Shown: piece by piece, positions 3,170 to 46,765 of the stretch
How positions within the stretch are numbered: the first letter of the stretch is position 1
Layout: each line of letters opens with the position of its first letter
NCBI GenBank assembly: GCA_963833985.1
Contig: CAWIAD010000001.1
Span: 2,688,001-2,752,000, forward strand
DNA: 64,000 bases
Reading direction: 5' to 3'
From: an uncultured Planctomycetaceae bacterium
GTDB lineage: Bacteria; Planctomycetota; Planctomycetia; Isosphaerales; Isosphaeraceae
The notes under the pieces: generated by a model
The model's database searches: none
What the model saw: only the letters and a program-made list of their open reading frames with translations
Told to the model about the DNA's origin: nothing
Made by a program: the position numbers and the translations under genes

Positions 3170-3868
3170 ATGCGTGTGTCGATAGTCACGGTGGTCGGAC
3201 TGCTGGTGGCGACGTTCGCGTTCTGGATTGGCGACGCGGAGTCCCAGCATGGCGCGGGCAAGGGCAAGGCGGCACCGCCTAGCCCTCCAAGAAAAGTGGC
3301 CGCGGCCATCGTGCCAAAGGCGCACCCGCCACAGCCCCAGCCGAAGGCCCATCCAAAGGCGAAGGCAGCGGTTTCGAAGGAGGCGCAGAAGAAGGCCGCC
3401 GCATCAAACGGGGCACAGAAGAAACAGAGCGGTTCGCCGAAGCAGGAAAACAAAGCAAAGAAGAATCAGGCGCACACCAAGAAAGCGGCGACGAACAAAG
3501 TGGCCAGGGCCGCCGGGGTACCGGCCCTTACTCCCCAGGACAGCATCGCATTGCTGAACACGGCGTATCAAAAGCTCAAGGAAGTGAATAACGGCTATGG
3601 CGGACACCCCGCTTCGGCCATGAAGCACGTCGGGGCGGCCCTCGGCCATCTCGGCTCTCCGTTGCCCCTACAGATCGAAGGCGTCAGCGGCTTGGTGACT
3701 GCGCCGCGCACGGTATCCGACGCATCACTGAGGCAGGCCAGGGCGAGTCTGGAGAAAGTCAGCCATCACTTCGCCGCGAATTCCGTCCCCACCCCGGGCA
3801 GTGGAGCAGCACATCGCGCCGTGAACAACGCCATCCGTGAGCTTGATGCGGCGTTGATCACCCGATGA
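3170..3868 (+). CDS. Hypothetical exported protein with Lys/Ala/Pro-rich linker and helical C-terminal domain (YGGH motif)
   Basis: AAGGGGA RBS before ATG 3170; hydrophobic N-terminus; coherent ORF. Confidence 0.7.
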   Translation: MRVSIVTVVGLLVATFAFWIGDAESQHGAGKGKAAPPSPPRKVAAAIVPKAHPPQPQPKAHPKAKAAVSKEAQKKAAASNGAQKKQSGSPKQENKAKKNQAHTKKAATNKVARAAGVPALTPQDSIALLNTAYQKLKEVNNGYGGHPASAMKHVGAALGHLGSPLPLQIEGVSGLVTAPRTVSDASLRQARASLEKVSHHFAANSVPTPGSGAAHRAVNNAIRELDAALITR

Positions 3869-4257
3869 GCGGGGAGGAGCTTCGCGCAGCGCTGCTGAGA
3901 AGAAGCTCGAGCTGGCCTCATTGAAGTTGAGCAAGTGGCCCGAGAACTCTCTGCCTGGCCGCACGGCCGCACGCTTCGCGCAAGTCAACCAGCACGCGGC
4001 CAGGGATGCCATTGAACACGGATTCCGCGTCCGTGTGCTCGCTCACGCGCAGGCAAACGTAAGCCCGCGGACAGGAAATGAAAACCCATTAGAGAAACCA
4101 GAACCCCGGCTTTCCCGGTATCAGCACAGTCCGAGGCAACTGGCCTGGCCTCTCAGCACACCGCTGGACCAGCAAGCGTGTGCAGGCAGACAAGCAGTTC
4201 AAAACCTCAACGTCTCTCGCTCGCACCAGATCAGCTCCCTGAAAGGAAGCCTGACCA

Positions 4258-4833
4258 ATGGGACTCGCACTCGCTCTCTCGCTGTCTCTCATCACGCAGC
4301 AGGCCCCGACAATGGTCTACCAGGTCAGCGGGCCCGTCCAGAAGTTTCAGTTGTACTGGACTTTCGACCCGTCCGAGCTGATCCTCGGCCTGGATGGCGT
4401 CTCGGTCAACTCCATCAACGACAACCCTCCCTCCGCACCCATCTCGATCAAATTCGCTTCGGCCCAGCTCCAGCCGATTCCCTCCAACCCCAACTTGTGC
4501 TCCTTGTCAGATCAAAATGGAGACGCCATCATTTCCTATCAGTGGACCAGCGTCGGCTACGGCAGCGGAGCCGTAGAACTGGGATTCGAAACGGGGTTCG
4601 CCCTCGAGGACCAGATGTCGCCCTTCACCTTCGTAGGATTCGACTATGGCGCCTTCGTGCTGGTCACCCTCGTTCCCTCGTCTGGGAGAGTTCAGGATAT
4701 CCAGGACGTGATGAATGGAAAATCGCTCACGGTCAGCGGGACCGCGAACTTCGAGTTGGTCCTCGCGCCCTACAACACGCTCGTTTACCCCAGGCCGAAC
4801 CTGAGAGTTTTCATCCCGGCAGTGCGCTACTGA
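4258..4833 (+). CDS. Hypothetical secreted beta-rich protein, paralog of 12542..13117
   Basis: 191 aa, signal-like N-terminus, colinear paralog in the window. Confidence 0.85.
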   Translation: MGLALALSLSLITQQAPTMVYQVSGPVQKFQLYWTFDPSELILGLDGVSVNSINDNPPSAPISIKFASAQLQPIPSNPNLCSLSDQNGDAIISYQWTSVGYGSGAVELGFETGFALEDQMSPFTFVGFDYGAFVLVTLVPSSGRVQDIQDVMNGKSLTVSGTANFELVLAPYNTLVYPRPNLRVFIPAVRY

Positions 4834-4921
4834 TCGACACGACCCGAGCGCCTGACTGAAAGCTTCCGCCCGTCCGCAGCCATGGTGCCGAGTGGTGTTC
4901 CGCTCTTCCAGGATACTTGAT

Positions 4922-7900
4922 ATGGCCACACTGAATCCCAGGCTTGCCGACCTCGCCGACGACGACCGTCAGATGCTCGAATCATGGCTCGTCGAGTTCG
5001 ATGAGAAATGGGATGAGGGCTCGCTGTCAAGCCGCCTGGACCAGATCCCGCCGGGAAGTTCCTGGCGCCTGCCCGCACTGTGCGAGATGGTCAAGATCGA
5101 CCTTCAGCGGCAGTGGAAGAGCGGCCGGCAGGTCAGCCTCGAATCGTACCTGGAGCAGTATCCCGAGCTGGGCAGCCCTGGCGACGTCTCCGCCGACCTG
5201 ATCCAGGCCGAGTACGAGGTCCGGCGCCAGTTCGGCGCTCCCGTCACCCTCGACGACTACGTCCGCCGTTTCCCGCACCAGGCCGAGGAACTCGCTCGCC
5301 TGATCACGCCGGGCGGCTCGACGTTCTCGCGACGCTCGCCTGCCCCCGGTTCCTCGCACAAGTCTTCTCGTGTCCCAAAATCCGCGGAGCCGCCCCAGCC
5401 GCCTCCCGAGCAGTTCGGCCGCTACCGGATCATCAAGCGCTTGGGGCAGGGTGGGATGGGCTCGGTCTACCTGGCCCAGGATACTCATCTCCAACGCGCC
5501 GTGGCTCTGAAAGTACCGGAGTTTGGAGAACACGACGATCCTGAGGCGCGGAAGCGGTTCCTGGAAGAGGCGCGCACCGCCGCCACGCTCGACCACCCTT
5601 ACCTCTGTCCCGTGTATGACGCCGGGGAAATCGATGGGCAGCTTTACCTGACGATGGCGTACATCGAGGGCCAGTCGCTGGCGGACCTGATCGGCGATGC
5701 GGGCTGGCCGCAGCGCCAGGTCGCGGCGCTGGTAGGCAAGCTCGCGCTGGCGTTGCAGGAAGCGCACACCCGCAAGGTCGTCCACCGCGACCTCAAGCCG
5801 GCGAACATCATGATCAAGACGACCGGTTCCCGGCGCGAGCCGGTGATCGTCGATTTCGGCCTGGCCCGGCGGGAGAATCCGCAGGACCAGCGCCTGACGA
5901 AGTCGGGCCAGGTCATGGGCACGCTCGGCTACATGGCGCCCGAGCAGATCCGCGGCGATCTGAAGGAGATTGGGCCGGCCTGCGACATCTACGCGCTCGG
6001 AGTGATCCTCTACGAGCTACTGACCGGCCGGCTGCCGTTTTCCGGTTCGGGGCTGGCGATTGCGGGCCAGATCCTGACCCAGGCGCCGTTGCCGCCGTCG
6101 ACGCATCGGGCCGACCTCAACCCCGCCCTCGAGGCCATCTGCCTGAAGGCGATGGCCAAGGTCATCGGAGACCGCTACACCTCAATGGCCGAGCTGGCCG
6201 CGGACTTGACGGGTTTTCTTCAATCGGCATCAGCCACTCAGAGGTCAACTACGTCAGCCGGACCACCTGCCATACTCTCGCCGATCTCACGAGAGCGGCC
6301 TCAGCCGACTGGGAGCAACTCTCTGGTCGGCCAGTTCCTCGATCGGTTGGCCGGGACCAACGCGTTGCCTCCTCCCATCCCGACTCCGGAGCCGGTCGCT
6401 TCTGCAGCGCCGTTGAGGGGACGTCGCCGGCCGCCGTGGCCATTGATCGTCGCGGCCAGGGCGCTCGGTGTCATGATGCTCGGCGTGATCATCCTGGCCC
6501 GAGTCCCGTCGGCGCCCGACGTGGAGAAGGTTCCGGGAACCGTTCCGGGAGTCGCCAAGAGCGTTGAGGGCAAGCCACAAGGCCCAGTCGCCGCTGGCAC
6601 CGCCGAAAGTCCCGCTCAGACAGTGGGAGGCAAGCCACCAGCGCCGCCCGCGACGACTCCGTCCTCGGCGAAAGAGCTCGCCTCGCCGTCTACAGTCGGG
6701 ACAGCGAGCACGAAAGGCGACTTCCAGCCCCTGTTCAACGGCAGGAACACGGCCGGGTGGAAAGTACATCCGAATCAGAGGGGCAACTGGCATGTTGCGA
6801 ACGGCGTCCTGATCGGCTCCGGTCCGGCGCTCAGCCACATCTACACGGAACGCGGTGATTTCACTGATTTTCACCTGCGCCTGGAGGCACGCTTCAACCG
6901 TGGCGGCAGTAGCGGAGTCTACCTGCGATGTCCGTTCGGCCCGAGTCTCCCCTCGGCGGACGATCCGAAATGGCCCGATGGATACGAGGCCACGATTAAC
7001 AATTCACGAGTCGCTCGCAACATCACCGGGGGCCTCTACCCGGGCGTGGGCAACGCCTTGATTGTTACCAAGTCTACCACGGTAACCTTCGGACAGTGGT
7101 TCACGCTGGAAGTGATCGCAGACGGCGGCGCTCTCACCGTCCTGGTGGACGGGAGATCAAGCGCATACAAATTCGCTCAGGAAAGACTCCATTCGAGCGG
7201 CCATATCGCCTTGCAACAGTACAGCCCCGAATCCGTGATCGAGTTCCGCAGGATCGAAATCAAAGAACTGAACCGCCCCGATCAGAAAGACCCAAAAGAG
7301 ATAGAGCGCTTCCCGGTTGGCTCAGACCGGGTGGCTCGCGTTGCCTTTATACCGGACGGATCGGGCATCCTATCGGGGTCATTTGACTGGACCCATACCA
7401 AAAGAAAAGATGGAGGGGACTACTTTTGGTTCGACCACAATTACGTGCTACGATTGCAGGCTGCGGAGGCGAACGGACGAAACCTATACACCAGGCAGGG
7501 AGAGGGAGCGATTGGCGGACCCCTTGCGTTTTCTGCCGACGGCCGGTTCGCAGCCTCGTCCGATTCTTCACTCTCAAAGCATCCAATTCTGGTCTGGGAT
7601 CTGAAGCTGGGAAAACGCATAAAGAGATTGATGTTAAAGGATAAAAGCAAGGAATTGGAGTGCTCCGCTCTGTCCTTTTCTGCAGATGACCGCCGCGTCA
7701 TGGCCGCGTCGACGAACGGCGCCGTGTTGTCGTGGGATCTGGCCACAGAAGAGGAGCAACCCGTAGTCACTCTCGAGGCGGGGCCGATCAAGCAGAATGA
7801 ATTCCCATGCGCGGCTTTCGGTGCCGACCGACAGCATCTGGCCACGGGGAGTCAATCAGGGCTGGTCGAGCTCTGGGACCCGCAGAGCGGCAAGAAGTTG

Positions 7901-8269
7901 CAGACATTCACTGGTCACAGGGGAGTGGTTGGAAGGGTGGCTTGTTCGGCGGACGGACGCCTCATCCTTTCCGCTGGCAGCGACCACAGCGTTCGCTTAT
8001 GGGACGTGGCCAGCGGGAAACAAATCCACCACTTGGAGAGTGATGACAGACAGGTCAGGTGCATCGCGTTCTCGCCGGACAACCGGCGAGCCTTGTCCGG
8101 TGGTCTCGATGGGCCCGTCCATTTGTGGGACCTTGCGAGCGGCAAGGAAGTATGCTGCATGGAAGGGCATAGCATGGGGGTGAACTCCGTGGCTTTCTCT
8201 CCTGACGGCCGCAGGGCGGTCTCGGGAAGCGACGACACAACCGTGCGTCTCTGGCAACTGCCGGAATAG
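4922..8269 (+). CDS. Ser/Thr protein kinase with TM segment, DUF1080-like domain and WD40 repeats
   Basis: LGQGGMGSV, VALK, HRDLKPANI, DFG, YMAPEQ; FQPLFNG...GHIALQ (DUF1080); repeated VRLWD/GH WD40 motifs. Confidence 0.93.
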   Translation: MATLNPRLADLADDDRQMLESWLVEFDEKWDEGSLSSRLDQIPPGSSWRLPALCEMVKIDLQRQWKSGRQVSLESYLEQYPELGSPGDVSADLIQAEYEVRRQFGAPVTLDDYVRRFPHQAEELARLITPGGSTFSRRSPAPGSSHKSSRVPKSAEPPQPPPEQFGRYRIIKRLGQGGMGSVYLAQDTHLQRAVALKVPEFGEHDDPEARKRFLEEARTAATLDHPYLCPVYDAGEIDGQLYLTMAYIEGQSLADLIGDAGWPQRQVAALVGKLALALQEAHTRKVVHRDLKPANIMIKTTGSRREPVIVDFGLARRENPQDQRLTKSGQVMGTLGYMAPEQIRGDLKEIGPACDIYALGVILYELLTGRLPFSGSGLAIAGQILTQAPLPPSTHRADLNPALEAICLKAMAKVIGDRYTSMAELAADLTGFLQSASATQRSTTSAGPPAILSPISRERPQPTGSNSLVGQFLDRLAGTNALPPPIPTPEPVASAAPLRGRRRPPWPLIVAARALGVMMLGVIILARVPSAPDVEKVPGTVPGVAKSVEGKPQGPVAAGTAESPAQTVGGKPPAPPATTPSSAKELASPSTVGTASTKGDFQPLFNGRNTAGWKVHPNQRGNWHVANGVLIGSGPALSHIYTERGDFTDFHLRLEARFNRGGSSGVYLRCPFGPSLPSADDPKWPDGYEATINNSRVARNITGGLYPGVGNALIVTKSTTVTFGQWFTLEVIADGGALTVLVDGRSSAYKFAQERLHSSGHIALQQYSPESVIEFRRIEIKELNRPDQKDPKEIERFPVGSDRVARVAFIPDGSGILSGSFDWTHTKRKDGGDYFWFDHNYVLRLQAAEANGRNLYTRQGEGAIGGPLAFSADGRFAASSDSSLSKHPILVWDLKLGKRIKRLMLKDKSKELECSALSFSADDRRVMAASTNGAVLSWDLATEEEQPVVTLEAGPIKQNEFPCAAFGADRQHLATGSQSGLVELWDPQSGKKLQTFTGHRGVVGRVACSADGRLILSAGSDHSVRLWDVASGKQIHHLESDDRQVRCIAFSPDNRRALSGGLDGPVHLWDLASGKEVCCMEGHSMGVNSVAFSPDGRRAVSGSDDTTVRLWQLPE

Positions 8270-8290
8270 GGTCTTGCCGAGAGAACCCTA
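8267..8290. terminator. Hairpin at the end of the kinase gene (terminator or REP remnant)
   Basis: TAGGGT...ACCCTA inverted repeat between convergent regions. Confidence 0.4.
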
Positions 8291-8319
8291 CCCAACACCG
8301 CTGATACATTGGTCTTTGA

Positions 8320-8530
8320 TCACCCGGTGAAGGGCCAGCGCCCGGCGCATCTCCCGCACGTTCGTGTATCGGGCCTGCGGATCGCGGGCCAGCTCACGAT
8401 GGATGATTCCGGCCAAGCCATCGGGAAGAGCGGGGCGGCGATCGCGGATCGGCACGGGGTATTCCAGCAAGATCTTCATGATCTTCGCGTGCAGCTTCGT
8501 GGGAAAGTCGTCGATGACCGGCCGTCGGTC
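8320..8530 (-). pseudogene. Degenerate duplicate (copy C) of the 3' end of the FHA-kinase gene
   Basis: Aligns to 10414..10626 ([26 protein letters not shown]...NVREMRRAL) with small indels. Confidence 0.88.
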
Positions 8531-8676
8531 CAACGCCAGGGTTTGGAGACCCTTGCAGAACGAAGGCGTGGGACAGCGGGGTCGGGAAACCCTCGCCGAA
8601 CAAAACAAGCTTGCAACGGAAGCAGCGGGGGGATCAAAGGGGGGTAAAGACAAACGTCGCGGCATGCCGGGCCACC

Positions 8677-8922
8677 CTACAGTCCCAGTCGTCGCTTCGC
8701 TTCCTCCAGGGATACGGTTGTGGTTTGTTTGGCGCGAGTCTCCAGTAGGGCCATCAGCCTGGGATTGGCGCGAGTCCGGGCGATCTCGCGGTCAAAATCG
8801 TCGACGGCTACAAGCAGAAATTCGCTGCCATCCGCGATCCGGACGACGATGTCGTCAACTCGAGCCTGATCGAGCAGGTTCACGATGTCAGGTGAGGCAT
8901 CAGTCAGTTCTACAGTCTTCAT
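8677..8922 (-). CDS. Putative antitoxin (Phd/YefM-like)
   Basis: 81 aa, ATGA overlap with the upstream toxin, C-terminal VSLEEAKRRLGL. Confidence 0.75.
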   Translation of the reverse strand: MKTVELTDASPDIVNLLDQARVDDIVVRIADGSEFLLVAVDDFDREIARTRANPRLMALLETRAKQTTTVSLEEAKRRLGL

Positions 8923-9212
8923 AGCTCGTGTTCTTCACCATGGATAAAGAGGCTGTTGCCAACCTTGCTGCCTACAGCCACAACCTTGACAACGGAATCC
9001 TCGAGAGAGACATCATGGAAGACACGAAAACTTTCGACTCGAAGCTCGCATTCGGCGAGTTGGTTCGGGCGGAGGCGTTTTCGTTTTCTCGTTTCGCGCG
9101 CCGGTTCATCTTTCAGTTGAACCTCGGTCTCGTCGACGACGCGTCTTGAATCGACATTTCGCAGAGAAGCCAGATCCTCCAGAGCTTCCGGCGTAAACTC
9201 AATGCGGTACAT
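8919..9212 (-). CDS. RelE/ParE-family toxin
   Basis: MYRIEFTPEALEDL...ELRVESFRVFHDV...VKVVAVG pattern. Confidence 0.85.
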   Translation of the reverse strand: MYRIEFTPEALEDLASLRNVDSRRVVDETEVQLKDEPARETRKRKRLRPNQLAECELRVESFRVFHDVSLEDSVVKVVAVGSKVGNSLFIHGEEHEL

Positions 9213-9380
9213 GCTGCCGCCAGGGACACTGAGGAGGCAATAAAGGGGGAGCCTCCATCCACCCCGTCGCCAGCTGCAATTCTACTCGGCGTATGGTCAA
9301 ACACGCGAGGTGTGCGCCATGGCCGCCGCCCGTTCCTTCAATGCCGTCATGACGACTAAATAGATCCTCGCCTCTTGGAA

Positions 9381-9434
9381 TGTGGGCCAGCCGCCCTCGG
9401 CTGGCTCAGGACGGCCGAGGGCGGCCGTTCCACA
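9381..9434. repeat. REP/REPIN-like palindromic doublet
   Basis: TGTGGGCCAGCCGCCCTCGGCTG...CGGCCGAGGGCGGCCGTTCCACA: two inverted GTGG-initiated palindromes. Confidence 0.7.
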
Positions 9435-9589
9435 CTTTCCCTCTTACGGGGAGCTATTTAGCTACTGGGAAATCGCCAGGCGAACCGACCAGGGGCAAGG
9501 GGCGCGCCGATCACGGCAAGCAGCTCGTGACCCGTCCGGCGCAGGGTCTGACCAGCAGAGGTGGGCGGGGATTCTGGTATCGAATTCTC

Positions 9590-9802
9590 TCACCTGGCAA
9601 AGGGTAGCAGCGCACGCCGCATTTCTCGCACGTTCGCGTACCGGGCCTGCGGATCGCGGGCCAGCGCACGATGGATGACCCAGGCCAATCCCACCGGTAT
9701 GTCGGGGCGGCGATCGCGGATCGGCACGGGGTCCTCCAGCAGGATCTTCATGATCTTCGCGTGCAGATTCCTGGGAAAGTCGTAGATGAACTGGTCGGTC
9801 AG
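9590..9802 (-). pseudogene. Duplicate (copy B) of the last 70 codons plus stop of the FHA-kinase gene
   Basis: 213 bp, about 20 mismatches to 10414..10626, no indels, stop retained, no start codon. Confidence 0.92.
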
Positions 9803-9875
9803 CAGCTACCAAAACAACGGCGAATGGATCCGTCGGTTACCACGAGTGTCCACTTCACTTTCTACGGCGTTTCCG

Positions 9876-10076
9876 TCACGCGCTTTGCTTGCGGGCAAGC
9901 AGCGCCCGAACCTCCGGAACCAGTTCGGTGGGGATGGCCATGAGCGTGATGTCCTCGGCCTCGCGCGCCGCCTCGATGTCGGCGAACTCCTCATCCTCGG
10001 TTTGGTTTTCGTAGTGCGCGATCATCTCCTTGACGCGCTTCTCATCCCAGCCAGGGGGAAACTTTTGCGTGCTCAT
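9876..10076 (-). CDS. Putative antitoxin, acidic 66 aa
   Basis: ATGA overlap with a BrnT/DUF4258-like toxin; FPPGWDE.RV...HYE motif. Confidence 0.75.
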   Translation of the reverse strand: MSTQKFPPGWDEKRVKEMIAHYENQTEDEEFADIEAAREAEDITLMAIPTELVPEVRALLARKQSA

Positions 10077-10357
10077 TTCGGTTTCCTCCGTTGTCGCCGC
10101 CGGAAGGCTTTCCTGGCCTTGCCTTGCGGTTCATATGCAGTAATCACAAATACGCTGTCGGGATCTTCGTCAGGCACGTAGAAGACTTGCAACAAGCGGC
10201 CGGCCGCAGTTTGGCCGATCTTCCGACGCGAGTTTCCCGTCGCGCGCAGGTCTTCACCCGGTCCGCGCAGGACTTCCCCAACTTCTCGTTCAGTGACCCC
10301 GTGCCCATGAATATGCGGCTGGCCGGTGTCTGGATCCTCGTAGAAGCGGAATTCCAT
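10073..10357 (-). CDS. BrnT/DUF4258-like toxin
   Basis: HGVTEREVGEVL...GQTAAGRLLQV...VFVITAY; GGAGG RBS. Confidence 0.82.
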   Translation of the reverse strand: MEFRFYEDPDTGQPHIHGHGVTEREVGEVLRGPGEDLRATGNSRRKIGQTAAGRLLQVFYVPDEDPDSVFVITAYEPQGKARKAFRRRQRRKPK

Positions 10358-10382
10358 GCCAACCCCTCCCTACCCGATTACG

Positions 10383-10388
10383 ATTCTA
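10383..10388 (-). promoter_or_regulatory. Putative -10 box (TAGAAT) of the TA cassette
   Basis: GGTAGAAT 25 nt downstream of the kinase stop and upstream of the toxin RBS. Confidence 0.55.
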
Positions 10389-10413
10389 CCGTGAAGGGAG
10401 TCTTGTGTAGTGA

Positions 10414-11846
10414 TCATCTGGTAAAGGGCAGCAGCGCCCGGCGCATTTCTCGCACGTTCGCGTACCGGGCCTGGGGATCGCGGGCGAGCGCGCGATGGAT
10501 GACCGCGGCCAGGCCTGCGGGTATGTCGGGGCGACGATCGCGGATCGGCACGGGGTCCTCGAGCAGGATCTTCATGATCTTCGCATGCAGCTTCTTGGGA
10601 AAGTCGTAGATGAACTGGTCGGTCAGGAAGTTGTAAAGCGTTGCGGCGGCGCTGTACTGGTCGGCGGCGGGCCTGGCCGCGCGCAGGTCGTTGATCTGTT
10701 CGGGCGCCATGAAAGGGGCCGTTCCGCCGCCCCCGTCACTCGAGCTCAGGCCGCTCATCTTGCTGGTCAGGTAGATGCGGGCGAGGCCGAAGTCAGACAG
10801 CTTGACCACCTCGCGGCCGCCTTCCGTGGTCACCAGCATGTTGGATGGTTTGACGTCGAGGTGGACGAAGCCCTTGGCGTGGGCGTAATCGAGCGCTTGC
10901 AGCACCTGGCAGACCAGTCCGATCGCGCGGGGGTCGGCAAGGGGCCGCGATGCTGCTTCAGCAAGTGCGCCGTATCGGTCCCCGGCACATAATCCATCGC
11001 CAGGTAGAGAAGTCCGCTCGCCTCGCCCAGCTCATGAAACGCCACGATATGCGGGTGATCCAGCTCGCTCAAAATCTGTGCCTCGCGAAGGAAGCGGTTC
11101 AGCTCCACAGGCGTGGGGTCGATGGCCGGCTTGATCGTCTTGATCGCCACAAGCGAGCCGTCGGCCGAGCGGATCGCCTGGTAGACGACACCCATGCCGC
11201 CCCGGCCCAGCTCGCGGACGATCTGGTAACCCGGGATGGGCTGGGGCAGAGTTGCAGTCTGTCCCAGGCAGGCCGGGCAGAGCGAGGTCGCCTCGACGTT
11301 CGTCTTCTGTCCCTCCGAACCACCTGACTCGACCTCACCCTCCGTAAGGCTTTTTCCGCACAGGCGGCAACTGCGTGAGGTTTTTGCGGCCAGCCGAGAC
11401 TGCGACGAAACATCCACCGTGGAGAGCGAGTGCCCGGTACGCGGGGCGCTTGAAACAGGTCGAGGAGCGGTCGGGAGCGGGGCAGCGGGCCCCGTGGACC
11501 CTGAAGTCAGGACCGTCTCGACCGAGGTAGCCACGGGCACATCGCTGTCGATTACAGAAACGATCAGGACGGTCTTCCCCGCCGTGATTCGATCGCCGTC
11601 CTTGAGGTCGGCCATGGCGACTTTCCGGCCGTTGACCCTGGTTCCGTTAGTGCTGTCCATGTCGGTCAGCCGGCACTGGGGCGGGTTCATCTCGATCATG
11701 AAATGCAGACGCGAGATGCTGTTATCGTTGACCGGAAGCCGGAAGCTGGCACGTTCCGACCGCCCCACGATGAAGAAGGCGCGTTCCTGGAACTCGAACA
11801 CCTCTCCCTGGTGCGGGCCTGCTTTGACCGTGAGGCTGATGCGCAT
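10414..11846 (-). CDS. FHA-domain Ser/Thr kinase with CxxC...CxxC motif; frameshift near 10930 (probably sequencing error)
   Basis: VGRS...SISRLH...DMDSTNGT (FHA); [30 protein letters not shown]; adding one base to the G run at 10929-10933 joins the two ORFs. Confidence 0.88.
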
Positions 11847-12541: not shown

Positions 12542-13117
12542 ATGGGACTCGCTCTTGCGCTTTCGCTGGCGCTGGCCGCACAGCAGACCACGACGTTGGT
12601 GAACCAGGTTGACGGAACGGCCCAGAAATTCGAGCTTTACTGGACTTTTGCTCCGACGACGCTCGCGCTCACGATGAATGGAGCGACAGTATCCGCAGTC
12701 AACAACAATGCACCGTCCACGCCCGTCTCAATCGCCTTCAACCCGGCCCAGATCAATCCCATTCCGAAAAATCCCAACCTGTGCGTGGTGTCGGATCAGA
12801 ATGGGGTCGCACTCTTATCCTACCAATGGAACAGTGTGCTTTACAGCGATCAGCAAGCCAGGTTGGGTTTCGAGGTCGCCTATGCCCTCGAGGACCAGAT
12901 GTCGCCCTATACCTTCATCGCCTTCGACTACGGGGCTTTCTATGAAGTTGTTCTCACTCCGGCGTCCGGCAAGGTACAAGATATTCAAGATGTCATGAAC
13001 GGGAAGCTATTCTCGGTCTCCGGGACCGCAACCTTCGAGCTCCTGGTCGCGCCTTACAATGGCTATCTGAATCCCAGACCGGATCTGAGAGTGTTCTTCC
13101 CGGCTGTACGCTTCTGA
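12542..13117 (+). CDS. Hypothetical secreted beta-rich protein, paralog of 4258..4833
   Basis: 191 aa, AAGGAG RBS, shared ALEDQMSP, FDYGAF and VQDIQDVMNGK motifs. Confidence 0.85.
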   Translation: MGLALALSLALAAQQTTTLVNQVDGTAQKFELYWTFAPTTLALTMNGATVSAVNNNAPSTPVSIAFNPAQINPIPKNPNLCVVSDQNGVALLSYQWNSVLYSDQQARLGFEVAYALEDQMSPYTFIAFDYGAFYEVVLTPASGKVQDIQDVMNGKLFSVSGTATFELLVAPYNGYLNPRPDLRVFFPAVRF

Positions 13118-19647: not shown

Positions 19648-21099
19648 CCTAGCCCATGTTTGGGGTGAGATCGCCTTCCGCGCGACTGCTGCCACGCATA
19701 ATTCCTCTATTTTCCAGGGGTTGGCGAGCGGCATACCCGTTTTTTTCCGAAAAGTGTAGTGACAATATCGACGCGATTACTTCGGAATTTACCTTGATTT
19801 CGCCTTGAAATCGGCGCGTTCCGTCGTGATACTTCACGACATGTACCTGAGAACCATAAAAGTCCGGTCGTCCAGCGGTGCGCTGAACGAGTACGTCCGC
19901 GTCGTCGAAGCCTATCGCGACAACGGTAAGGTCAAGCAACGCACCGTGGCCGATCTGGGACGCAAGGACCTGCTTGCGGAATTGTTTCCCAAGCTAAAAC
20001 GCTTGCTCGGTCAAGATGTCGAGTCGGAGTCCGCTGGGGACGAGGATCTCGACATCCTGGACGCTTCCACCTGGGGGCCGGTCCTCGCCGTCCGGGCCTT
20101 GTTCGACCAACTCGGGCTCTGGACCATCCTCGACGAATCACTCGGCAAAGCCAAAGGCGTGCCGTTTACTGACCGGGCCTTCGTGCTCATTGCCAATCGC
20201 CTGATTCACCCCGCCAGCGAACACGGCTTGGCGGGGTGGCTGGAGACCGACTTCGTCTGTGATCGCCAAGGCCGCCGTTTTGTTCCTCGCTGGCACCAGC
20301 ACAAGCGGGTTCGCGTCGACTTTCGCCAACTGGAGTCCTGGTACCGGACCCTCAATCAACTCGTGGACGCCAAGGAACGGATCGAGGTGGCTCTTTATCA
20401 CCGCCTTCGCGACCTGTTCAGTATCAAGCCGGACCTGGTGCTCTATGACATCACGAGCACCTACTTCGAGGGAGCTGGACCGGCCAACTTCGCCAAGCAT
20501 GGCTACAGTCGGGACGGCAAGCCGCACAACGTCCAGGTGATCGTCGGAGTGGTGATGGTGGGCGGCTGGCCGATCGCTCATCACGTTTGGGCCGGCAACG
20601 AAGTCGACCACCAGACCGTGCAGAAAGCCATTCGTGATCTGCACCAGCGATTTGGTTTCAGCCGCCTCGTTTTTGTCGGCGATCGAGGCATGATCACCAA
20701 TGACAATCTGGAAGCGATCACTGGCGACAAGCATGGCTATCTTGTGGGCGTGAAGCGAAGGCGGAATGCAAAGTTGACCAAGTGGCTGGCTGCCCTCGAC
20801 GATGCCAAGTGGATTTCTTGCCCGGTAGGGATCACCGCCCGGGAAAAGACCAATCCACCGCGCACTCGGGCGCAAGAGGTGCCGTCAGGAGTTGAAGGTT
20901 TGCGGATAATCATCGTCGATTCCGACGAGCGCCGCGAATACGAGCAAGCCATGCGTCAGAAGGCCATGGAGCGGACACATCAATCGCTCGAAGAAGTTGC
21001 AGGGGCGTGTGGCGGCAGGGAAGTTGAAACAGCCCGAGAAGATTGGCGCCGCAGCCGAGCACCTCCTGCAACGAAACCATGGCTATCGTTACTATTCGT

Positions 21100-23343
21100 C
21101 CTACTTTCCGCACATCTCGCCTTGACTATCTCGTAATTTCCGTGTGCCCTCTTTCGGCCAGTCAGGCTCAAATCTCGTAGGCTTTGGGTATCCCCAGCAG
21201 GCGCAGGATTCTCTTCTGGAGCCGAGTTAACTCTGTGCTGAACACCTCAAGAGGGCGTTTCCCAGCCTTCAGGGAATGCTCTTGAACGTCCTCGTACAGG
21301 TCGATCACTTTTCGAGCCGTCGGGCGTCGGCAGGCCCGACCTTCGGAATACAGTGGCAGGCTCTCGATTCCCGCTCGTTCCATCGCGCGGCGGAGTTCTC
21401 GCTCCAACAGCGCCTCGACCAGCAACACGAAGAAGTACACGCAGAGCAAGGCCTGAATCCGACTCACCTCCTTCAGGTACATAGGCGCTACCACGAAGTC
21501 AGTCTTCAGGTGCTCGAACCGTCGTTCGATGGCCGGTTGCTGTTTGTAGGCCAAGAGCAGATCCTGCTCCGTCATCTTCGATTCGTTGCTCACCAGCGGG
21601 AAAATGCCATCACAGCGGGCCTCCTCATCCAGTCGCTCCAACTCAATCCGATGCTTCAACGAGTAACGGAGCTTCTCCTCTCGGACGTACCGCGTGTCCT
21701 GTCCAGGCCGGCCGCGTCGCTCCTGGCGGAACTTTTCGGTGACCTGCTCCTCGATCTCGACCGAGATCCACTCGGTGACCTCACAGTCCCGGAGCAGCTC
21801 CTCGACCGCCTCGGCGACCTTGGCTCGACTGCGGTACCGGGTTCGGGACGAGGCGAGCTTGGCACGCAGTTCGTCCAGTCGTTTCAACGCCTTCTCCAGC
21901 CGGGTCAGCCGTACCTCCGCATCCAACTCGGCCTTGCGTGTGCTGTGATACCAGATCAGCCGGTAACCCTCGGTGGTCTGGCTCGCAGGTTTGCAGATCG
22001 AGAAGCGGTCGGTCAACTGTCCCTTGTCGTCGTACTTGTCGTGGGTCCATCGCCACTGGATCTCTCCCCGGAGTACGGCGCCGCGGAAGGCACCGTCCTC
22101 ACTGCGAGTTCGCGGCAGCACGCTGAGGAACCGACCGCCGCGCTGATGCAGATAGGCCATGTTCTCGGTGGTGGCCAGCTTGCAGTCGGCGATGTAGAGA
22201 AAGTCTCGGCGTCCGGTCAGTTGACAGAGCAACTCCCAGGTCTCCTGGTGAGAGCGGTCGTCGGTGGCGTTGCCGCTCTCGACGCGAAAGTGCACCGGGA
22301 CGGCACCGTCGCCGGTCACGGTGAGGATGTAGAGTAGCTGCTTGAGGTCGGGGCGGTGGTCTTTGTTATGACCCCAGGTCACCGCCAACCGCAATTGTCC
22401 CCGCAGGGTTCGCTCCGCCTCCGCCGACTCGTAGTCACCGTGGAAAGTGATGGTGGTCGAGTCGTTGTGTAACTGGTCGAGGCTGACGTCGAATTCGCGT
22501 ACGGCATGGGCCGCGACCTTCAGGGCCAACCCCGAGAGATTGGCGTCGAAGAGACGGTCGAGGGCCCGGCCAACTCGATCGTCGTTCATTGCGGCGACTT
22601 GGACATCGGACAACCCGAACAGTTTCGGCTCATGGCGGGCCACCCACTCACCGACACCATAGAGTGGCTCACGCGAGATCAGCAGGTTGCGCAGCAGGAC
22701 GAGCAAGGCCGTGGCCGTGGGGACCCGAGTGCGGCCGTCCTCATGGGGCAGGTGGTCGCAGAGAAACTCGCGAAGGCGGAGCCGACTCAGGAAGTGTTGC
22801 AGGATGGGCACGGCGGCAATCCGCCGCGTGTTGAGCGTGCGCTTGCGTCCCTTCGAGCGGGCCGTCTCGCCGGGTTGGCGCGGTCGTTGAGGTTCGTTCA
22901 TGCGGATCATCTCCGGAGGGTTTGCAGCGAGTTGGCCGGTGTCCGCCGCCGGGCCTTCCAGGGCCGTGAGGGGAGCAGGCCGACCGCCGCAGGGCTTGCC
23001 GCAATGATGGCGGAGGAGATCGGGACGTCAAGGACAAAAAATCTTGTGATTCACTTATGACAATTTGCCTTGACGTAAGTTGTGAGCCGCTCAACTTACG
23101 CTCATAGCCCGTGTCACAAGTCGTCGCGGCGAGAATCGCGGCGCACGGCTGGACATTGCCAAGTCATAAGACAAGGCGAAGAATGGCTCGAGTTCAGGAA
23201 CGGTCCGGTTGGCGAACCATCTGAACCGAACAAGGTCCCCGTGCCGATCGACTTGTAGATGTTTACCGACCCTGGGGCCGCGTCTGAGAAGATGGCCTCA
23301 GGTCGAATTCGGGGAAATCAAAGGGAGATGTGCGGAAAGTAGG
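21100..23343 (-). mobile_element. IS1634-family element copy B (2244 bp), about 99% identical to copy A and inverted relative to it
   Basis: Same TIRs; 6-bp target duplication ATTCGT at 21094-21099 and 23344-23349. Confidence 0.94.
21168..22910 (-). CDS. IS1634-family DDE transposase
   Basis: 580 aa, 3 amino-acid differences from 669..2411. Confidence 0.92.
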   Translation of the reverse strand: MIRMNEPQRPRQPGETARSKGRKRTLNTRRIAAVPILQHFLSRLRLREFLCDHLPHEDGRTRVPTATALLVLLRNLLISREPLYGVGEWVARHEPKLFGLSDVQVAAMNDDRVGRALDRLFDANLSGLALKVAAHAVREFDVSLDQLHNDSTTITFHGDYESAEAERTLRGQLRLAVTWGHNKDHRPDLKQLLYILTVTGDGAVPVHFRVESGNATDDRSHQETWELLCQLTGRRDFLYIADCKLATTENMAYLHQRGGRFLSVLPRTRSEDGAFRGAVLRGEIQWRWTHDKYDDKGQLTDRFSICKPASQTTEGYRLIWYHSTRKAELDAEVRLTRLEKALKRLDELRAKLASSRTRYRSRAKVAEAVEELLRDCEVTEWISVEIEEQVTEKFRQERRGRPGQDTRYVREEKLRYSLKHRIELERLDEEARCDGIFPLVSNESKMTEQDLLLAYKQQPAIERRFEHLKTDFVVAPMYLKEVSRIQALLCVYFFVLLVEALLERELRRAMERAGIESLPLYSEGRACRRPTARKVIDLYEDVQEHSLKAGKRPLEVFSTELTRLQKRILRLLGIPKAYEI

Positions 23344-39824: not shown

Positions 39825-40147
39825 GGTGGGCCCAGGTCGAGGTTGCCGAAATGCGGTCCAGGAGATGCTCAGCACCATCGGGCAGCCAAAGCACGCCCTG
39901 GTCCATCCTAACCAGTTCGGTCCCTGTGAGCGACTGCCTCCAGAGACCCTGACCGAGCGCATACGCTCTCGCCCTGTTGGGACAGGGTTATCGCCCGAGC
40001 CGAAATGGCGACGTCGCGTCTCACTTGAATCTGGCGGCCCGGCCTCCCCACCCCTCGCGAAGCGATCGCGTCCTCGCTTCGGATCGTTCGCCTCATGAAA
40101 TGACGGGTCATGACTGCATTAGTCTAGCCGAGAGGGATCAGGAGCGA

Positions 40148-40768
40148 TCAGGAAGGTCCTGGCCCGTTCGGGTCGGCCGGGGTGGCACGCGGCTCTTCGG
40201 CAGAAATGCGGCGTGGCAGGATGTCGCTCAGGGCACAGCGGAAGCCCGGAATCACGTCCTCGCCGGAGAGGACGTCGGCCTCGTCCAGCCGGACGGGCGG
40301 TCCGTCGGGGCGGAAGACCCATGCCCTGCGTGCTTTCGGGTAGATGACCCAGACCAGGGGCACGCCGGCCTGCTGGTAGTCCTCCAGCTTCTCCTCGAGT
40401 TCCTCGGCCGCATCGTGGGGAGAGACGACCTCGACGGCCAGGTCGGGGGGGATCCTCACCCAGCCCTCCGGCGAGACATCGCCGGGCAAGCGCCCACGCC
40501 GGACGAACGAGACATCGGGCTTGCGCACCCGGCCGGGAGCGTGAGCGAAGCACTGGTAGCCGTTGTCGGCACCCCAGACCAGCCCCAGGCGAGACTCGTC
40601 GCAGAACCGATCCAGACGAGAACAGAGTTGCGTTCCAACCCGGCTCGATTCCGCTCCCATGTTTCGCTCCACCAGTCGGCCATCGACCAGTTCATAACTC
40701 TTGCCATCAGGCATGGCCAGCAGGTCTTCCGGCGTGTAGCGGGTTTGGGTGGCAACGGCCGTGCTCAT
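40148..40768 (-). CDS. Uma2 family endonuclease, copy 1
   Basis: YELVDG, RKPDVSF, PDLAVEVVSP, AGVPLVWVI. Confidence 0.92.
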   Translation of the reverse strand: MSTAVATQTRYTPEDLLAMPDGKSYELVDGRLVERNMGAESSRVGTQLCSRLDRFCDESRLGLVWGADNGYQCFAHAPGRVRKPDVSFVRRGRLPGDVSPEGWVRIPPDLAVEVVSPHDAAEELEEKLEDYQQAGVPLVWVIYPKARRAWVFRPDGPPVRLDEADVLSGEDVIPGFRCALSDILPRRISAEEPRATPADPNGPGPS

Positions 40769-40932
40769 GGTCCGGCTCCGTCGTGACGGGAGTCATAGTG
40801 CGAACAACAGCATTCTACCATCGCCCCGCTCCACCCGGGAGACGCACGGCGCATTCGCTCTCTGGCATCCCACAACGCGGGCGGCCCCAACCGTGCCAAA
40901 CGTGCGCCATGACCAGTTCGAGCGGGGAGCGA

Positions 40933-41553
40933 TCAGGAAGGTCCCGGCCCGTTCGGGTCGGCCGGGGTGGCACGCGGCTCTTCGGCAGAAATGCGGCGTG
41001 GCAGGATGTCGCTCAGGGGACAGCGGAAGCCCGGAATCACGTCCTCGCCGGAGAGGACGTCGGCCTCGTCCAGCCGGACGGGCGGTCCGTCGGGGCGGAA
41101 GACCCATGCCCTGCGTGTTTTCGGGTAGATGACCCAGACCAGGGGCACGCCGGCCTGCTGGTAGTCCTCCAGCTTCTCCTCGAGTTCCTCGGCCGCATCG
41201 TGGGGAGAGACGACTTCGACGGCTAGGTCGGGGGGGATCCTCACCCAGCCCTCCGGCGAGACATCGCCGGGCAACCGCCCGCGCCGGACGAACGAGACAT
41301 CGGGCTTGCGGACCCGGCCGGGAGCGTGAGCGAAGCACTGGTAGCCGTTGTCGGCCGGCCAGAAATGCCCCAGGTGGTGCTCCTCGCAGAACGATCCAAG
41401 GCGCAGCAGCAAGCGCCCCGCGACCTCACTCGATTCCGCTCCCATGTTTCGCTCCACCAGTCGGCCATCGACCAGTTCATAACTCTGACCATCGGGCATG
41501 GCCAGCAGGTCTTCCGGCGTGTAGCGGGTTCGGGTGGCAACGGCCGTGCTCAT
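40933..41553 (-). CDS. Uma2 family endonuclease, copy 2
   Basis: Same motifs as copy 1. Confidence 0.92.
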   Translation of the reverse strand: MSTAVATRTRYTPEDLLAMPDGQSYELVDGRLVERNMGAESSEVAGRLLLRLGSFCEEHHLGHFWPADNGYQCFAHAPGRVRKPDVSFVRRGRLPGDVSPEGWVRIPPDLAVEVVSPHDAAEELEEKLEDYQQAGVPLVWVIYPKTRRAWVFRPDGPPVRLDEADVLSGEDVIPGFRCPLSDILPRRISAEEPRATPADPNGPGPS

Positions 41554-41839
41554 GGTCCGGCTCCGTCGTGACGGGAGTCATAGTGCGAACAACAGCATTC
41601 TACCATCGCTTCGCTCCACCCGGGAGACGCACGGCGCACTCGCTCTCTTGCATCCCGCAACGCGGGCGGCCCCATATCTCCGTTACAAATCTGCCTCCGC
41701 CGGGCGTGAGGTACGCTCTCCCAACGCAGGCAGGTGGTGAGACTGTAAGCAGAAACGACTCAGAGTAGACACTGGGGGCCACCTACGCCTCGGGATCGCG
41801 GTGCGTGGGTGGCCCCGTCTGATCGCGTCTGATTGCCCT

Positions 41840-44120: not shown

Positions 44121-44612
44121 TGATTCCCCCCTTCCTTGAATCCACGTGCGGGACGTGTAGCGCCCAAATCCAGGATCTGAGCTTGGGCGGTCGAGGACTC
44201 CTTCCTCTTCCACCTAACGAACGGGAGACGGGCACGCCAAGCGCGCGCGGTTCAGGGGGAGAAAGAGCCTGAAATGGAAAAGGCCATCAATCCCACTATT
44301 TTCAAGGGTTTTCTCAAGAAAACGCCACCTTGAGTCGACGCGGCTCACGACCTGGGACGGCCCGAGCGGTTCGCACGCGGTGCCTGCCGAAATGCTCGGC
44401 CGGCGCGTCCCCAGCGCCGTCGCGGAATATCCCGGCCAGGGCAGCATCACACTGTCCGGTTCCTCTGCCGTTGCCGGCCCCGACCCGAACTGCGAGTCCT
44501 GATCAAATCGCAGCGCCACATCATCGCTGCGCCTGAAACCGAGGTCGCTGTGCGAGTGCTCGAGCTTGCCCGCAACGCGCGCCGTCGCGCGGGCGGAACG
44601 GAACTCATGCGC

Positions 44613-45294
44613 TCACACCCGCGCCAGGCTTTCGCCGTGGCGGGGGAGGGGGACGACCGCGGCGCGGAAGGGCTCGGCGGCGAGGCGGATCCGCACGTCC
44701 CAGCGACCCGTCTCATCGGCCGTGACGTGCCAGTGGGGGACGACGGCCGAGGACTGGTAAACGCCCTCGAAGCCTCCCTCGCTCTGGCTCACCGTCTCGA
44801 TGGGGTAGCACCAGAGACCCCCCGGACGCGACCAGGAGAGGCCCACCGCGAGGTCCAGCCACTCGTCCGTGAGCGACAGGCCCTCGGTGTGCGGCGCGTC
44901 GATACGCGCATCGAGCATTCCCAGCCGGGCGCCCTGCGTGTCGGAATAGTAGCGGTCCGTCGCATGCCCGGCCATGGCCGCCAGGTTGAGCTCAACGGCA
45001 AAGTGCAAGCAGACGCCGGGGGGCAGATCGAGAAGCTCGTAATGCACGTCCAGGGCCGGCGCTCCGGCAGCCAGAGCGATCGATTTCTTGATCCGGATGG
45101 CGTGGCCGGAGGCCATTCCCGGGCGCTCCATCGCCAGCAGCACGCGCCTGGAGTCGCGCTGGGCACGCGCCAGGTAAGTACCCGTGACAAAGTCTCCGCG
45201 CTCCACATCGCCACACGCCGCCAGGTCTTCCAGCGTCACGTCGACAGGGTAGAAGTGATCCACGAGCGCCTTGCGCGGATGGCGATCGTAGACA
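44613..45294 (-). pseudogene. Duplicate of the 3' end of the 4-alpha-glucanotransferase gene
   Basis: 44609..45294 matches 46762..47447 at about 99%; begins mid-gene. Confidence 0.95.
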
Positions 45295-45392
45295 CGCGGC
45301 GGCTATGAGGACATCCTCCGCGGTCGCGTTGCGGAGGCGACGGGCGATTCGAATGCAGATGATGACACGACCGCGCGCAATCACGCCACGCC

Positions 45393-45421
45393 TTGGCAAC
45401 GCCACCTCGCTGTGCTATTCT
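45393..45421 (+). promoter_or_regulatory. Sigma-70 promoter of the TA operon
   Basis: TTGGCA-N17-TATTCT with extended TG, followed by purine-rich RBS. Confidence 0.7.
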
Positions 45422-45445
45422 GAAAATCGAAGGAGATACCGGAGC

Positions 45446-45757
45446 ATGACGATTCGTTTACCCGACCATCTCCAACGATATGTCCACGACCAGGTCGAGG
45501 CGGGTCACTTCCGCAGCGAGGACGATGTGATCCTCGATGCCCTGGAGCGGCACCGTCAAGCTCAGCAGCAGCCCTCCCCGCCGGCCATTCGCCCCGACAA
45601 GCTCAGCAGCCAGGAGGTGCAACAACGCTTGTTCGACGCCGGCCTCATCAGCGAAATCAGGCCGCCGATCACCGACCTTGCCCTCTACCAAAACCGCCGG
45701 GCTATCCCCATCCAGGGTGAGCCCATCTCCGCAACCGCACTCCGCGAGCGGCGTTAA
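45446..45757 (+). CDS. Antitoxin with ParD-like RHH N-terminus
   Basis: MTIRLPDHLQRYVHDQVEAGHFRSEDDVILDAL; C-terminal GEPISATALRERR. Confidence 0.8.
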   Translation: MTIRLPDHLQRYVHDQVEAGHFRSEDDVILDALERHRQAQQQPSPPAIRPDKLSSQEVQQRLFDAGLISEIRPPITDLALYQNRRAIPIQGEPISATALRERR

Positions 45758-45759
45758 CG

Positions 45760-46209
45760 GTGCCGGAATTCTTTCTCGACACCAGCGCGGCCTTGAAGCG
45801 ATACGTCCTGGAACCCGGCACTCCTTGGGTACAGGCACTGGCCGCACCCGCGGCTGGTCATTCCCTCATCATCGTACGAATCACCCTGGCCGAGACCGCC
45901 GCCGCCATCACCCGGCGGGAGCGGGACGGCTCGATCACGCCCATGGACGCCGCGACCGCACTGGCCGACTTCCAGCTCGATTTCGCGCGCCAGTACTTCA
46001 TCATCGAGGTGTCTGCTCCCCTGGTAGACCAGGCCGCCACCCTGGTGAGAAAGCACGGGCTGCGGGGCTATGACGCCGTGCAGCTTGCAGCAGCCCTAGA
46101 AACGCAGGCTCGGCTCCCAACGCTGACGCTGCTTTCGTCCGACGTTGAGCTCAATGCCGCCGCGTTGGCCGAGGGCCTGGCCGTTGACGATCCCAGCAGC
46201 CATCCCTGA
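45760..46209 (+). CDS. vapC: VapC-family PIN domain toxin
   Basis: FLDTSAALKRY..E.G, LRGYDAVQLAAA, SSD..L..AA. Confidence 0.9.
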   Translation: MPEFFLDTSAALKRYVLEPGTPWVQALAAPAAGHSLIIVRITLAETAAAITRRERDGSITPMDAATALADFQLDFARQYFIIEVSAPLVDQAATLVRKHGLRGYDAVQLAAALETQARLPTLTLLSSDVELNAAALAEGLAVDDPSSHP

Positions 46210-46765
46210 TCGTCTGGTCGTGCATCGATCAGAGATCTAATTCCCGTGTTCTCTGGCAGTTTTTAGGAGGGCTGTGAACAAGGGACCGAGAAGGGCAAGG
46301 GCCGGGAACAGGCCGCACTTCCTGCGGCATACAAGCATACCAGGACGGACATAAATGGAACCTTGACCCGGGAGGTGGCCTACAACCCTTCCTCAGAGAT
46401 GAAGGTATCGTCGGCCTCCACCTCGCACTCAGCGAGGAACTCGCGATCAATGAAGTCGTCGCGGGGTCACGTTCGCTCAATCGACTGCTGGTCCCGGGTG
46501 CTATCCTTGCGGGAATTCAAGATATGGTCCCGATGAGACTTTGAATGTACCGGCCGGGATCGCTCGCTCTCTCGGGACTGCTCAATGAGCCTGTTCTGCG
46601 TCAGGCTTTAGTACGATGCGGATGGTGATTGGCTGCCTCTCGTTTGATCACGCACCGGTGAGCCTACCCGAATGGCCACATCCTGCCCGTGTCACTTCTC
46701 TCTCCCGGAGGAACAGGGCGTACCATGTGGTTCGCAAGGTCCCACACCGGATCAGAGAAGCGCGC

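Follow-up and report, generated by a model that had tools for sequence, protein, structure and literature searches.

Predicted toxin-antitoxin pairs alternate with displaced gene tails behind a kinase gene of an uncultured planctomycete, in an array that may have grown by stacked insertion

It is a standing question by what route chromosomal toxin-antitoxin (TA) pairs without a recognisable mobile element around them were acquired, and whether addiction has any effect on them in such places. A compact array in the genome of an uncultured Planctomycetaceae bacterium (assembly GCA_963833985.1) raises it in concrete form. The array lies in a 64,000-nt stretch of contig CAWIAD010000001.1 (hereafter the window), behind a gene for a serine/threonine kinase with an FHA domain. 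A repeat search of the window recovered a three-copy family of 213 nt corresponding to the 3' end of this gene, and the copies bracket a BrnT-like pair (TA1) and a ParE-like pair (TA2), both toxin-first. We read the array, with a probability of about 0.5, as two stacked integrase-free insertions, in which a circularised kinase tail derived from a relative, together with a TA pair, would have entered by a single crossover, TA2 first, and would have been kept by addiction. The components are as follows.

10414-11846, minus strand: FHA-Ser/Thr kinase gene, 477 aa in orthologs (Pfam FHA and Pkinase, reading frames)
10414-10626, minus strand: copy A, the present 3' end of the kinase gene (repeat search, alignment, BLASTN)
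10073-10357, minus strand: predicted TA1 toxin, DUF4258/BrnT-like fold (Pfam among family members, structure model)
9876-10076, minus strand: TA1 partner of 66 aa, predicted antitoxin (coupled to the toxin in homolog loci)
9590-9802, minus strand: copy B, displaced kinase tail, in frame
8919-9212, minus strand: predicted TA2 toxin, ParE/RelE family (PF05016, 27 bits, cut-off 23)
8677-8922, minus strand: predicted TA2 antitoxin, Phd/YefM-like, below cut-off
8318-8530, minus strand: copy C, frameshifted, adjoining the convergent kinase; likely the original resident tail
4892-8269, plus strand: convergent Ser/Thr kinase-WD40 gene, which adjoins the kinase in empty-site relatives too

Read along the minus strand, the kinase with tail A is followed by TA1, tail B, TA2, tail C and the convergent kinase-WD40 gene. 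The initial annotation had described the last ~213 bp of the FHA-kinase gene as present three times, and both the coordinates and BLASTN against the whole 10.2-Mb genome agree: A aligns with B at 90.6% identity (E 3e-80) and with C at 83.6% (E 5e-58), and no full tail copy was found in the genome beyond these three. Its description of a distinct toxin-first pair between successive tails also holds, TA1 being DUF4258/BrnT-like and TA2 combining ParE_toxin with a Phd-like partner. Each pair couples a toxin-family gene to a small partner through overlapping stop and start codons, and by family and gene coupling both are predicted type II TA pairs. DUF4258 was found in 10 of 13 family members of the first TA1 gene, and the model of its product (pLDDT 85) found its best Foldseek matches in a Salmonella TA-complex chain and in Brucella BrnT (E 0.002-0.004), none reaching E<=0.001; the 66-aa partner falls into no Pfam or NCBIfam family, and the TA2 toxin sequence gave no toxin match in the PDB. 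The units measure 824 and 1272 bp and consist of TA genes and non-coding repeats, without integrase or transposase. The common start codon and shared end at the stop that had been claimed for the copies are confirmed for B, which aligns gap-free and in frame to the stop, whereas the edge of C, a copy with indels, lies 2-9 nt after that of B. Likewise, growing divergence with distance stands as a description, given the percentages, the open frame of B and the indels of C; it provides no simple clock, because C is nearer to the kinase ends of two relatives, L048 and L122 (88%), than it is to A or B (84-85%).

The corresponding sites in relatives indicate how the array was assembled. The closest kinase orthologs come from Planctomycetota/Isosphaeraceae, and eight distinct loci at ~79-85% DNA identity were compared (L123, being identical to L122, was not counted separately; L050 and L052 share 98.6% identity), all of them representing other species and not strains of the source species. 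Six of the eight (L049-L052, L122, L124) have no downstream unit, and in five of those six the convergent gene adjoins. L048 carries the kinase, a flank homologous to that of B and TA2 (92%) in one run, and in L125, a 1053-bp contig too short to show an intact kinase, the TA2 antitoxin is joined directly to a 364-bp kinase tail. A more distant ortholog (L023, 71%) is accompanied by an oppositely oriented DUF433/DUF5615 pair and a ~80-bp tail. The polarised, sequential gain behind the kinase that had been suggested is thus supported by the empty sites, by TA2 directly behind the kinase in L048 and by TA2 with a tail in L125; relatives do differ in unit number and cargo, with none in six loci, one elsewhere and two in the window. 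The tails of 364 and ~80 bp rule out a fixed breakpoint, and with it the shared 5' breakpoint that had been proposed as a check. A displaced tail within 1.5 kb was seen in just one of 24 kinase-family loci (L250-L273).

The copies themselves carry a record of their origin. Between A and B there are 14 synonymous changes on 54 sites and 6 non-synonymous changes on 156, a distribution that departs from neutrality (p=4e-5) and from what would accumulate if the gene had copied its own tail once and the copy had then evolved neutrally (p=0.008); A pairs with B in the tree at a bootstrap of 90, support elsewhere being low. They therefore look like alleles that may both have been coding for a time, and the pattern of the three copies fits replacement by incoming tails. 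It had also been suggested that the tails form a swappable reservoir of alternative kinase C-termini, and B, in frame and able to recombine with A, could in principle serve as one. Most of the changes between A and B (14 of 20) are synonymous, so the copies are better seen as different alleles: the two tails encode the same residue at all but 5 of 70 positions, the reading frame of C is broken, orthologs conserve the region and the kinase is itself frameshifted in the assembly, being one base short near 10933-10950 relative to the intact 477-aa orthologs (a real change or an assembly error), all of which renders a reservoir hardly credible.

Whole-gene tandem duplication or unequal crossover (kinase-TA-kinase), followed by 5' deletion in the second copy, would also make A and B sisters, long-kept paralogs would likewise yield a synonymous bias, and 31 of 4866 genes in this genome have a whole near copy within 4 kb. 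In L122, moreover, TA1 (95%) with half an attC site (3186-4059) stands ~340 bp upstream of the intact kinase, in reversed order relative to the window, and a former tandem, or a circle, would account for this permutation. Against such a duplication, no kinase-TA-kinase locus occurs among the orthologs examined, and the 3' end is kept and the 5' part lost at many unrelated genes (fabF, selB, a tRNA-deaminase-like gene). Fast 5' deletion would be needed each time, because some of these tails are 98-100% identical, and we regard this origin as unlikely.

Whether the kinase array is an isolated case was addressed across the genome with rough gene calls made for this analysis. The scan of 6534 genes yielded 47 entries in which a partial tail lies downstream of the gene itself, some of them duplicated or paralogous. 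Clear TA cases are fabF (a PIN pair), the tRNA-deaminase-like gene (HicA), a DUF1559 gene (BrnT) and a HAD gene (DUF433/DUF5615); further ones are a second kinase and a BON gene (GNAT/TacA) and, inside the window, a glucanotransferase gene (PIN). By its sequence, the glucanotransferase duplication is a very recent case:

46762-47450, minus strand: 689-bp tail of the 4-alpha-glucanotransferase gene
44609-45297, minus strand: repeat of that tail (99%), the whole span being 44609-47450
45446-46209, plus strand: ParD-like/PIN pair between the two tails

Three to four displaced tails follow dprA (L029, G000:C1:1162000-1170000), where the cargo comprises PEP-CTERM, thioredoxin-like and other genes without assignment, and two of the tails have a common edge together with about 15 upstream bases. 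Twenty displaced tails at 17 hand-picked genes (18 were given) span 60-685 bp and share no junction motif recognisable by eye; they hold 226 synonymous and 144 non-synonymous changes (p=4e-15 against own-copy decay). Among 4866 genes, 3'-only copies lie downstream of the gene in 21 cases and upstream in 6, and 5'-only copies lie downstream in 4, a bias expected if only gene-restoring events survive.

To quantify the association, 62 TA marker matches from eight Pfam searches were grouped into 60 loci, and a locus was called bracketed when low-copy direct repeats of 30 bp or longer flanked it on both sides within 2 kb. Bracketing was found at 23 of 60 TA loci and at 14 of 400 random small genes (odds ratio 17, p=1e-13); it was found at 11 of 300 control genes matched for GC content (p=2e-12), a matching that is a mere proxy for recent acquisition. 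Stricter limits left 18 of 62 TA matches against 3 of 400 and 3 of 300 controls. About 9 of the 23 bracketed loci involve gene 3' ends; the rest involve 5' ends, intergenic repeats and short paralogs. In this genome, more than one TA locus in three thus sits between long low-copy repeats, and these loci are likely to have entered by ordinary recombination without an integrase. Other arrangements were also observed: at L044, a gene 5' end of 167 bp (96%) occurs at 1101-1267 and 2098-2264 around a DUF433/DUF5615 pair, a mirror case, and L108 and L109 are intergenic three-copy arrays with differing edges, around TacA/GNAT and MazF-like pairs and around a Phd/PIN pair.

What was observed, namely repeats and cargo families, empty sites, tails of variable length, the bias towards synonymous changes and the genome-wide enrichment, is the basis for reading the kinase array as two stacked insertions; circle, crossover, event order and addiction are what we infer from it. 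The incoming piece would have comprised the kinase tail of a relative and a predicted TA pair, its ends joined through a short stretch of matching bases to form a small circle. After one crossover of this circle into the resident kinase tail, the gene would again be complete, and the former tail would lie downstream of the insert. TA2 would have arrived first, pushing C back, and TA1 second, pushing back B and TA2, the two cargoes stemming from unrelated mobile sources, namely an integron-type cassette for TA1 and, for TA2, a pair with a dispersed repeat following it. The units could loop out between their repeats, and post-loss killing by the toxin would retain them, which would also explain the predominance of TA pairs at such sites in the genome. 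Experimental precedent exists in Escherichia coli, in which 56 of 60 clones carried duplications of the lacZ end, 109-950 bp long in the 14 sequenced, ascribed in that report to recircularisation and a single crossover (PMC3240628), and circular intermediates have been proposed for rhs tips (PMC2935791). A generalisation that we consider speculative and rather doubtful would make a TA pair with a borrowed neighbour-gene tail a minimal enzyme-free mobile element, namely one that loops out as a circle of 0.5-2 kb, returns by one crossover to the corresponding gene in relatives, repairs that gene, is locked in by addiction and can be stacked, covering a third of the TA loci of the genome.

Several points weigh against the favoured reading. 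The circle leaves the same scar as linear one-sided capture, or homology-facilitated illegitimate recombination (HFIR), in which the donor kinase part would pair with the resident gene and the cargo end would be joined by microhomology inside that gene, upstream of its end. Such capture has been proposed for Vibrio cholerae immunity arrays and Rhs tips (PMC5361080), microhomology is present at C, and the genome contains dprA and ComEC-like genes; nevertheless, the four HFIR clones described in the E. coli test were deletions, the duplications having come from circles (PMC3240628), and the permuted order in L122 is left unexplained, so that linear capture is possible but doubtful. The starts of B and C lie only 2-9 nt apart, a coincidence with a chance of 1-5% per pair given the spread of tail lengths and of 7-29% over the ~7 pairs counted in this genome. 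TA2 can occupy the site without a duplication, because L048 carries it with no displaced tail in 5 kb downstream, and a contig from X1, one of three sequencing runs of relatives (X1-X3, sharing 5-6% of words with the source genome), joins it to the convergent kinase without C. TA1 is closer to that of L122 (proportion of synonymous differences, pS, 0.12-0.14) than the kinase is (pS 0.35-0.41), and the L122 kinase was therefore not the donor of the tail. Neither a circle nor a pop-out joint (a skip of 824 or 1272 bases) was seen in X1-X3, which, as relatives, are uninformative for the source strain. The ComEC-family match (G000:C2:3102822-3103702) is split over two frames by a real break or an assembly error; both toxin activity and DNA uptake are putative components of the route. 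Finally, the TA excess was not significant class-wide (6 of 56 TA against 3 of 58 control loci, p=0.32) in a sample of the best match per genome with 1.5-kb flanks, from which four short-flank and three own-genome loci were dropped; by eye, three of the TA cases and none of the controls involve gene 3' ends.

Junctions provide a further line of evidence on how the pieces were joined, and the sequences between cargo and tails are as follows.

9803-9868, minus strand: spacer before copy B, likely the decayed left part of an attC site (likeness to attC after TA1 homologs)
9462-9589, minus strand: sequence following B, with its homolog in L048 located after the stop codon of the live kinase gene (9802-9492 aligns at 83.6%)
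9356-9461, strand not assigned: 106-bp element resembling a miniature inverted-repeat transposable element, with 8-bp terminal inverted repeats and tens of genome copies
8522-8672, minus strand: decayed, broken-off copy of a dispersed repeat before C, overlapping the start of C by 7-9 nt

At the end of TA1 homologs lie attC-type hairpins; the one in L203 is complete (z -3.3), that in L122 is half a site and those in X1 and X3 are partial, and TA1 relatives that end in attC sites include L203 and L208. The spacer before B weakly resembles the left half of attC (p=0.006, one of eight tests), and TA1 likely descends from an attC-bearing cassette. Neither window spacer folds into a hairpin (z +1.3 before B, +0.5 before C). 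The attC remnant and the kinase share just 4 nt at the B joint. At C, the first 7-9 bases match both the kinase and the end of the dispersed repeat, the true edge being 2-9 nt after that of B and the 7-nt repeat/kinase match lying at -209. This repeat is multi-copy in G003, G006 and G011 and also follows TA2 in L229. Copies of at least 150 bp with a constant start occur at L234, L236 and L240-L248. Decayed kinase sequence as the source of the spacer before C was rejected, there being no match above shuffles (p 0.27-0.96). The 106-bp element, overlooked in the initial annotation, has perfect terminal inverted repeats, a strong hairpin (z -7) and near-identical copies, and, as relatives do not have it, is a later insertion.

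A site-specific recombinase acting in trans (a tyrosine integrase, IntI or an HUH/Y1 enzyme) at a fixed core near the LTD codons would account for the near coincidence of the B and C edges and for the two dprA tails with a common edge. In its favour, too, are the probable attC ancestry of TA1, a likeness of the repeat before C to the terminal inverted repeat (TIR) motif described for TIRtrons (PMC3733652), and seven Y1 transposase matches in the genome. The lengths of 364 and ~80 bp in relatives speak against a fixed core, as do the two spacers, which are unrelated (p=0.24) and share no arm. None of 14 TIGR02249 (IntI) matches in this 96% complete genome passed the cut-off, no enzyme gene was found beside the dispersed repeat at the repeat loci examined, and no Y1 gene lay beside it across 12 Y1 loci or 11 repeat loci, the likeness to a TIRtron end being one of motif only. 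Both cargoes terminate in a broken-off element, the attC remnant and the repeat being cut in the middle and not at recombination ends; a recombinase is accordingly improbable.

Other features of the window were recorded alongside. Two paralogous 191-aa genes in direct orientation (4258-4833 and 12542-13117, 8284 bp apart), with zero Pfam or NCBIfam matches, bracket the two-kinase module. A Uma2 gene shows a 785-bp tandem duplication (96-98%) at 40141-41674, and DDE-type transposase genes lie at 669-2411, 19841-21136 and 21168-22910, two of them near-identical in N-terminal sequence. An Rfam scan of 8200-10700 gave no match at gathering level, and a promoter and terminator scan gave chance-level results only.

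How this array relates to known systems can now be considered. Integrons possess an IntI integrase and an attC site closing each cassette, and their arrays show polarised order. The kinase array resembles them, and clusters of attC sites lacking integron-integrases (CALIN), in its polarised order and in the attC-ending relatives of TA1; unlike them, its units are bounded by kinase tails, the attC site is destroyed, no intact one closes a unit and no IntI match exceeds the cut-off, and an integron was therefore rejected. Prophages and islands that integrate into gene 3' ends, such as e14 in icd, supply a replacement 3' end and displace the old one (~200 bp). In contrast, the units described here are only 0.8 and 1.3 kb long, contain no integrase and have edges that differ between genomes, with unrelated spacers that share no arm, so that a site-specific island was likewise set aside. 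Of the likeness to integrons and Rhs originally proposed, it is the Rhs-like displacement that survives, as a statement of how the array works: in rhs loci (Jackson et al. 2009, PMC2935791) and in V. cholerae type VI secretion system immunity arrays (Kirchberger et al. 2017, PMC5361080), as described there, incoming DNA that carries a fragment of the conserved core moves the old end further downstream, the fragments differ in length and undergo decay, and circles or HFIR are proposed. The window lacks a variable toxic tip or immunity gene; its tails are conserved and homologous up to the stop, with no non-homologous tip, and what is new is the cargo that follows the stop codon, which rules out an orphan C-terminal array of the Rhs or contact-dependent inhibition type. 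The E. coli recircularisation experiment (PMC3240628) similarly left foreign DNA between duplicated gene ends of about 100-950 bp; it used a laboratory plasmid substrate, whereas the present case is known from its scar alone.

The closest parallel is the insertion of restriction-modification (R-M) genes with long target duplication (Furuta, Abe, Kobayashi 2010, PMC2853133), for which that report describes inserts below 20 kb that carry no further mobility genes, unique direct repeats that exceed 30 bp and vary in length, an empty site in relatives and repeats enriched around a selfish gene class. The window is similar in its 213-bp repeat with three copies only, its empty site in six of eight loci, its units of 824 and 1272 bp and its variable repeats (213, 364 and ~80 bp here, 60-685 bp genome-wide). 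It differs from the system as reported there in that the cargo is type II TA, with no R and M genes and no DNA-cutting enzyme to start the event, that the repeats are often gene tails with allele-like synonymous divergence, and that the units are stacked. Because TA replaces R-M as cargo, the array is a variant of insertion with long target duplication and not a member of that group. No literature report of TA pairs inserted with long target duplications, or of TA enrichment there, was found in a search that covered subscription journals thinly. Taken alone, the kinase array is an ordinary displacement scar, and the genome-wide TA bias is the testable part: in about 20 base-resolved cases a TA pair occupies a deletion-prone spot between direct repeats, at about 17-fold odds over controls, which makes the anti-loss role of TA directly testable in this genome, where toxins may lock the units in place. 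The mode of long target duplication would thereby be extended from R-M genes to cargo unable to cut DNA.

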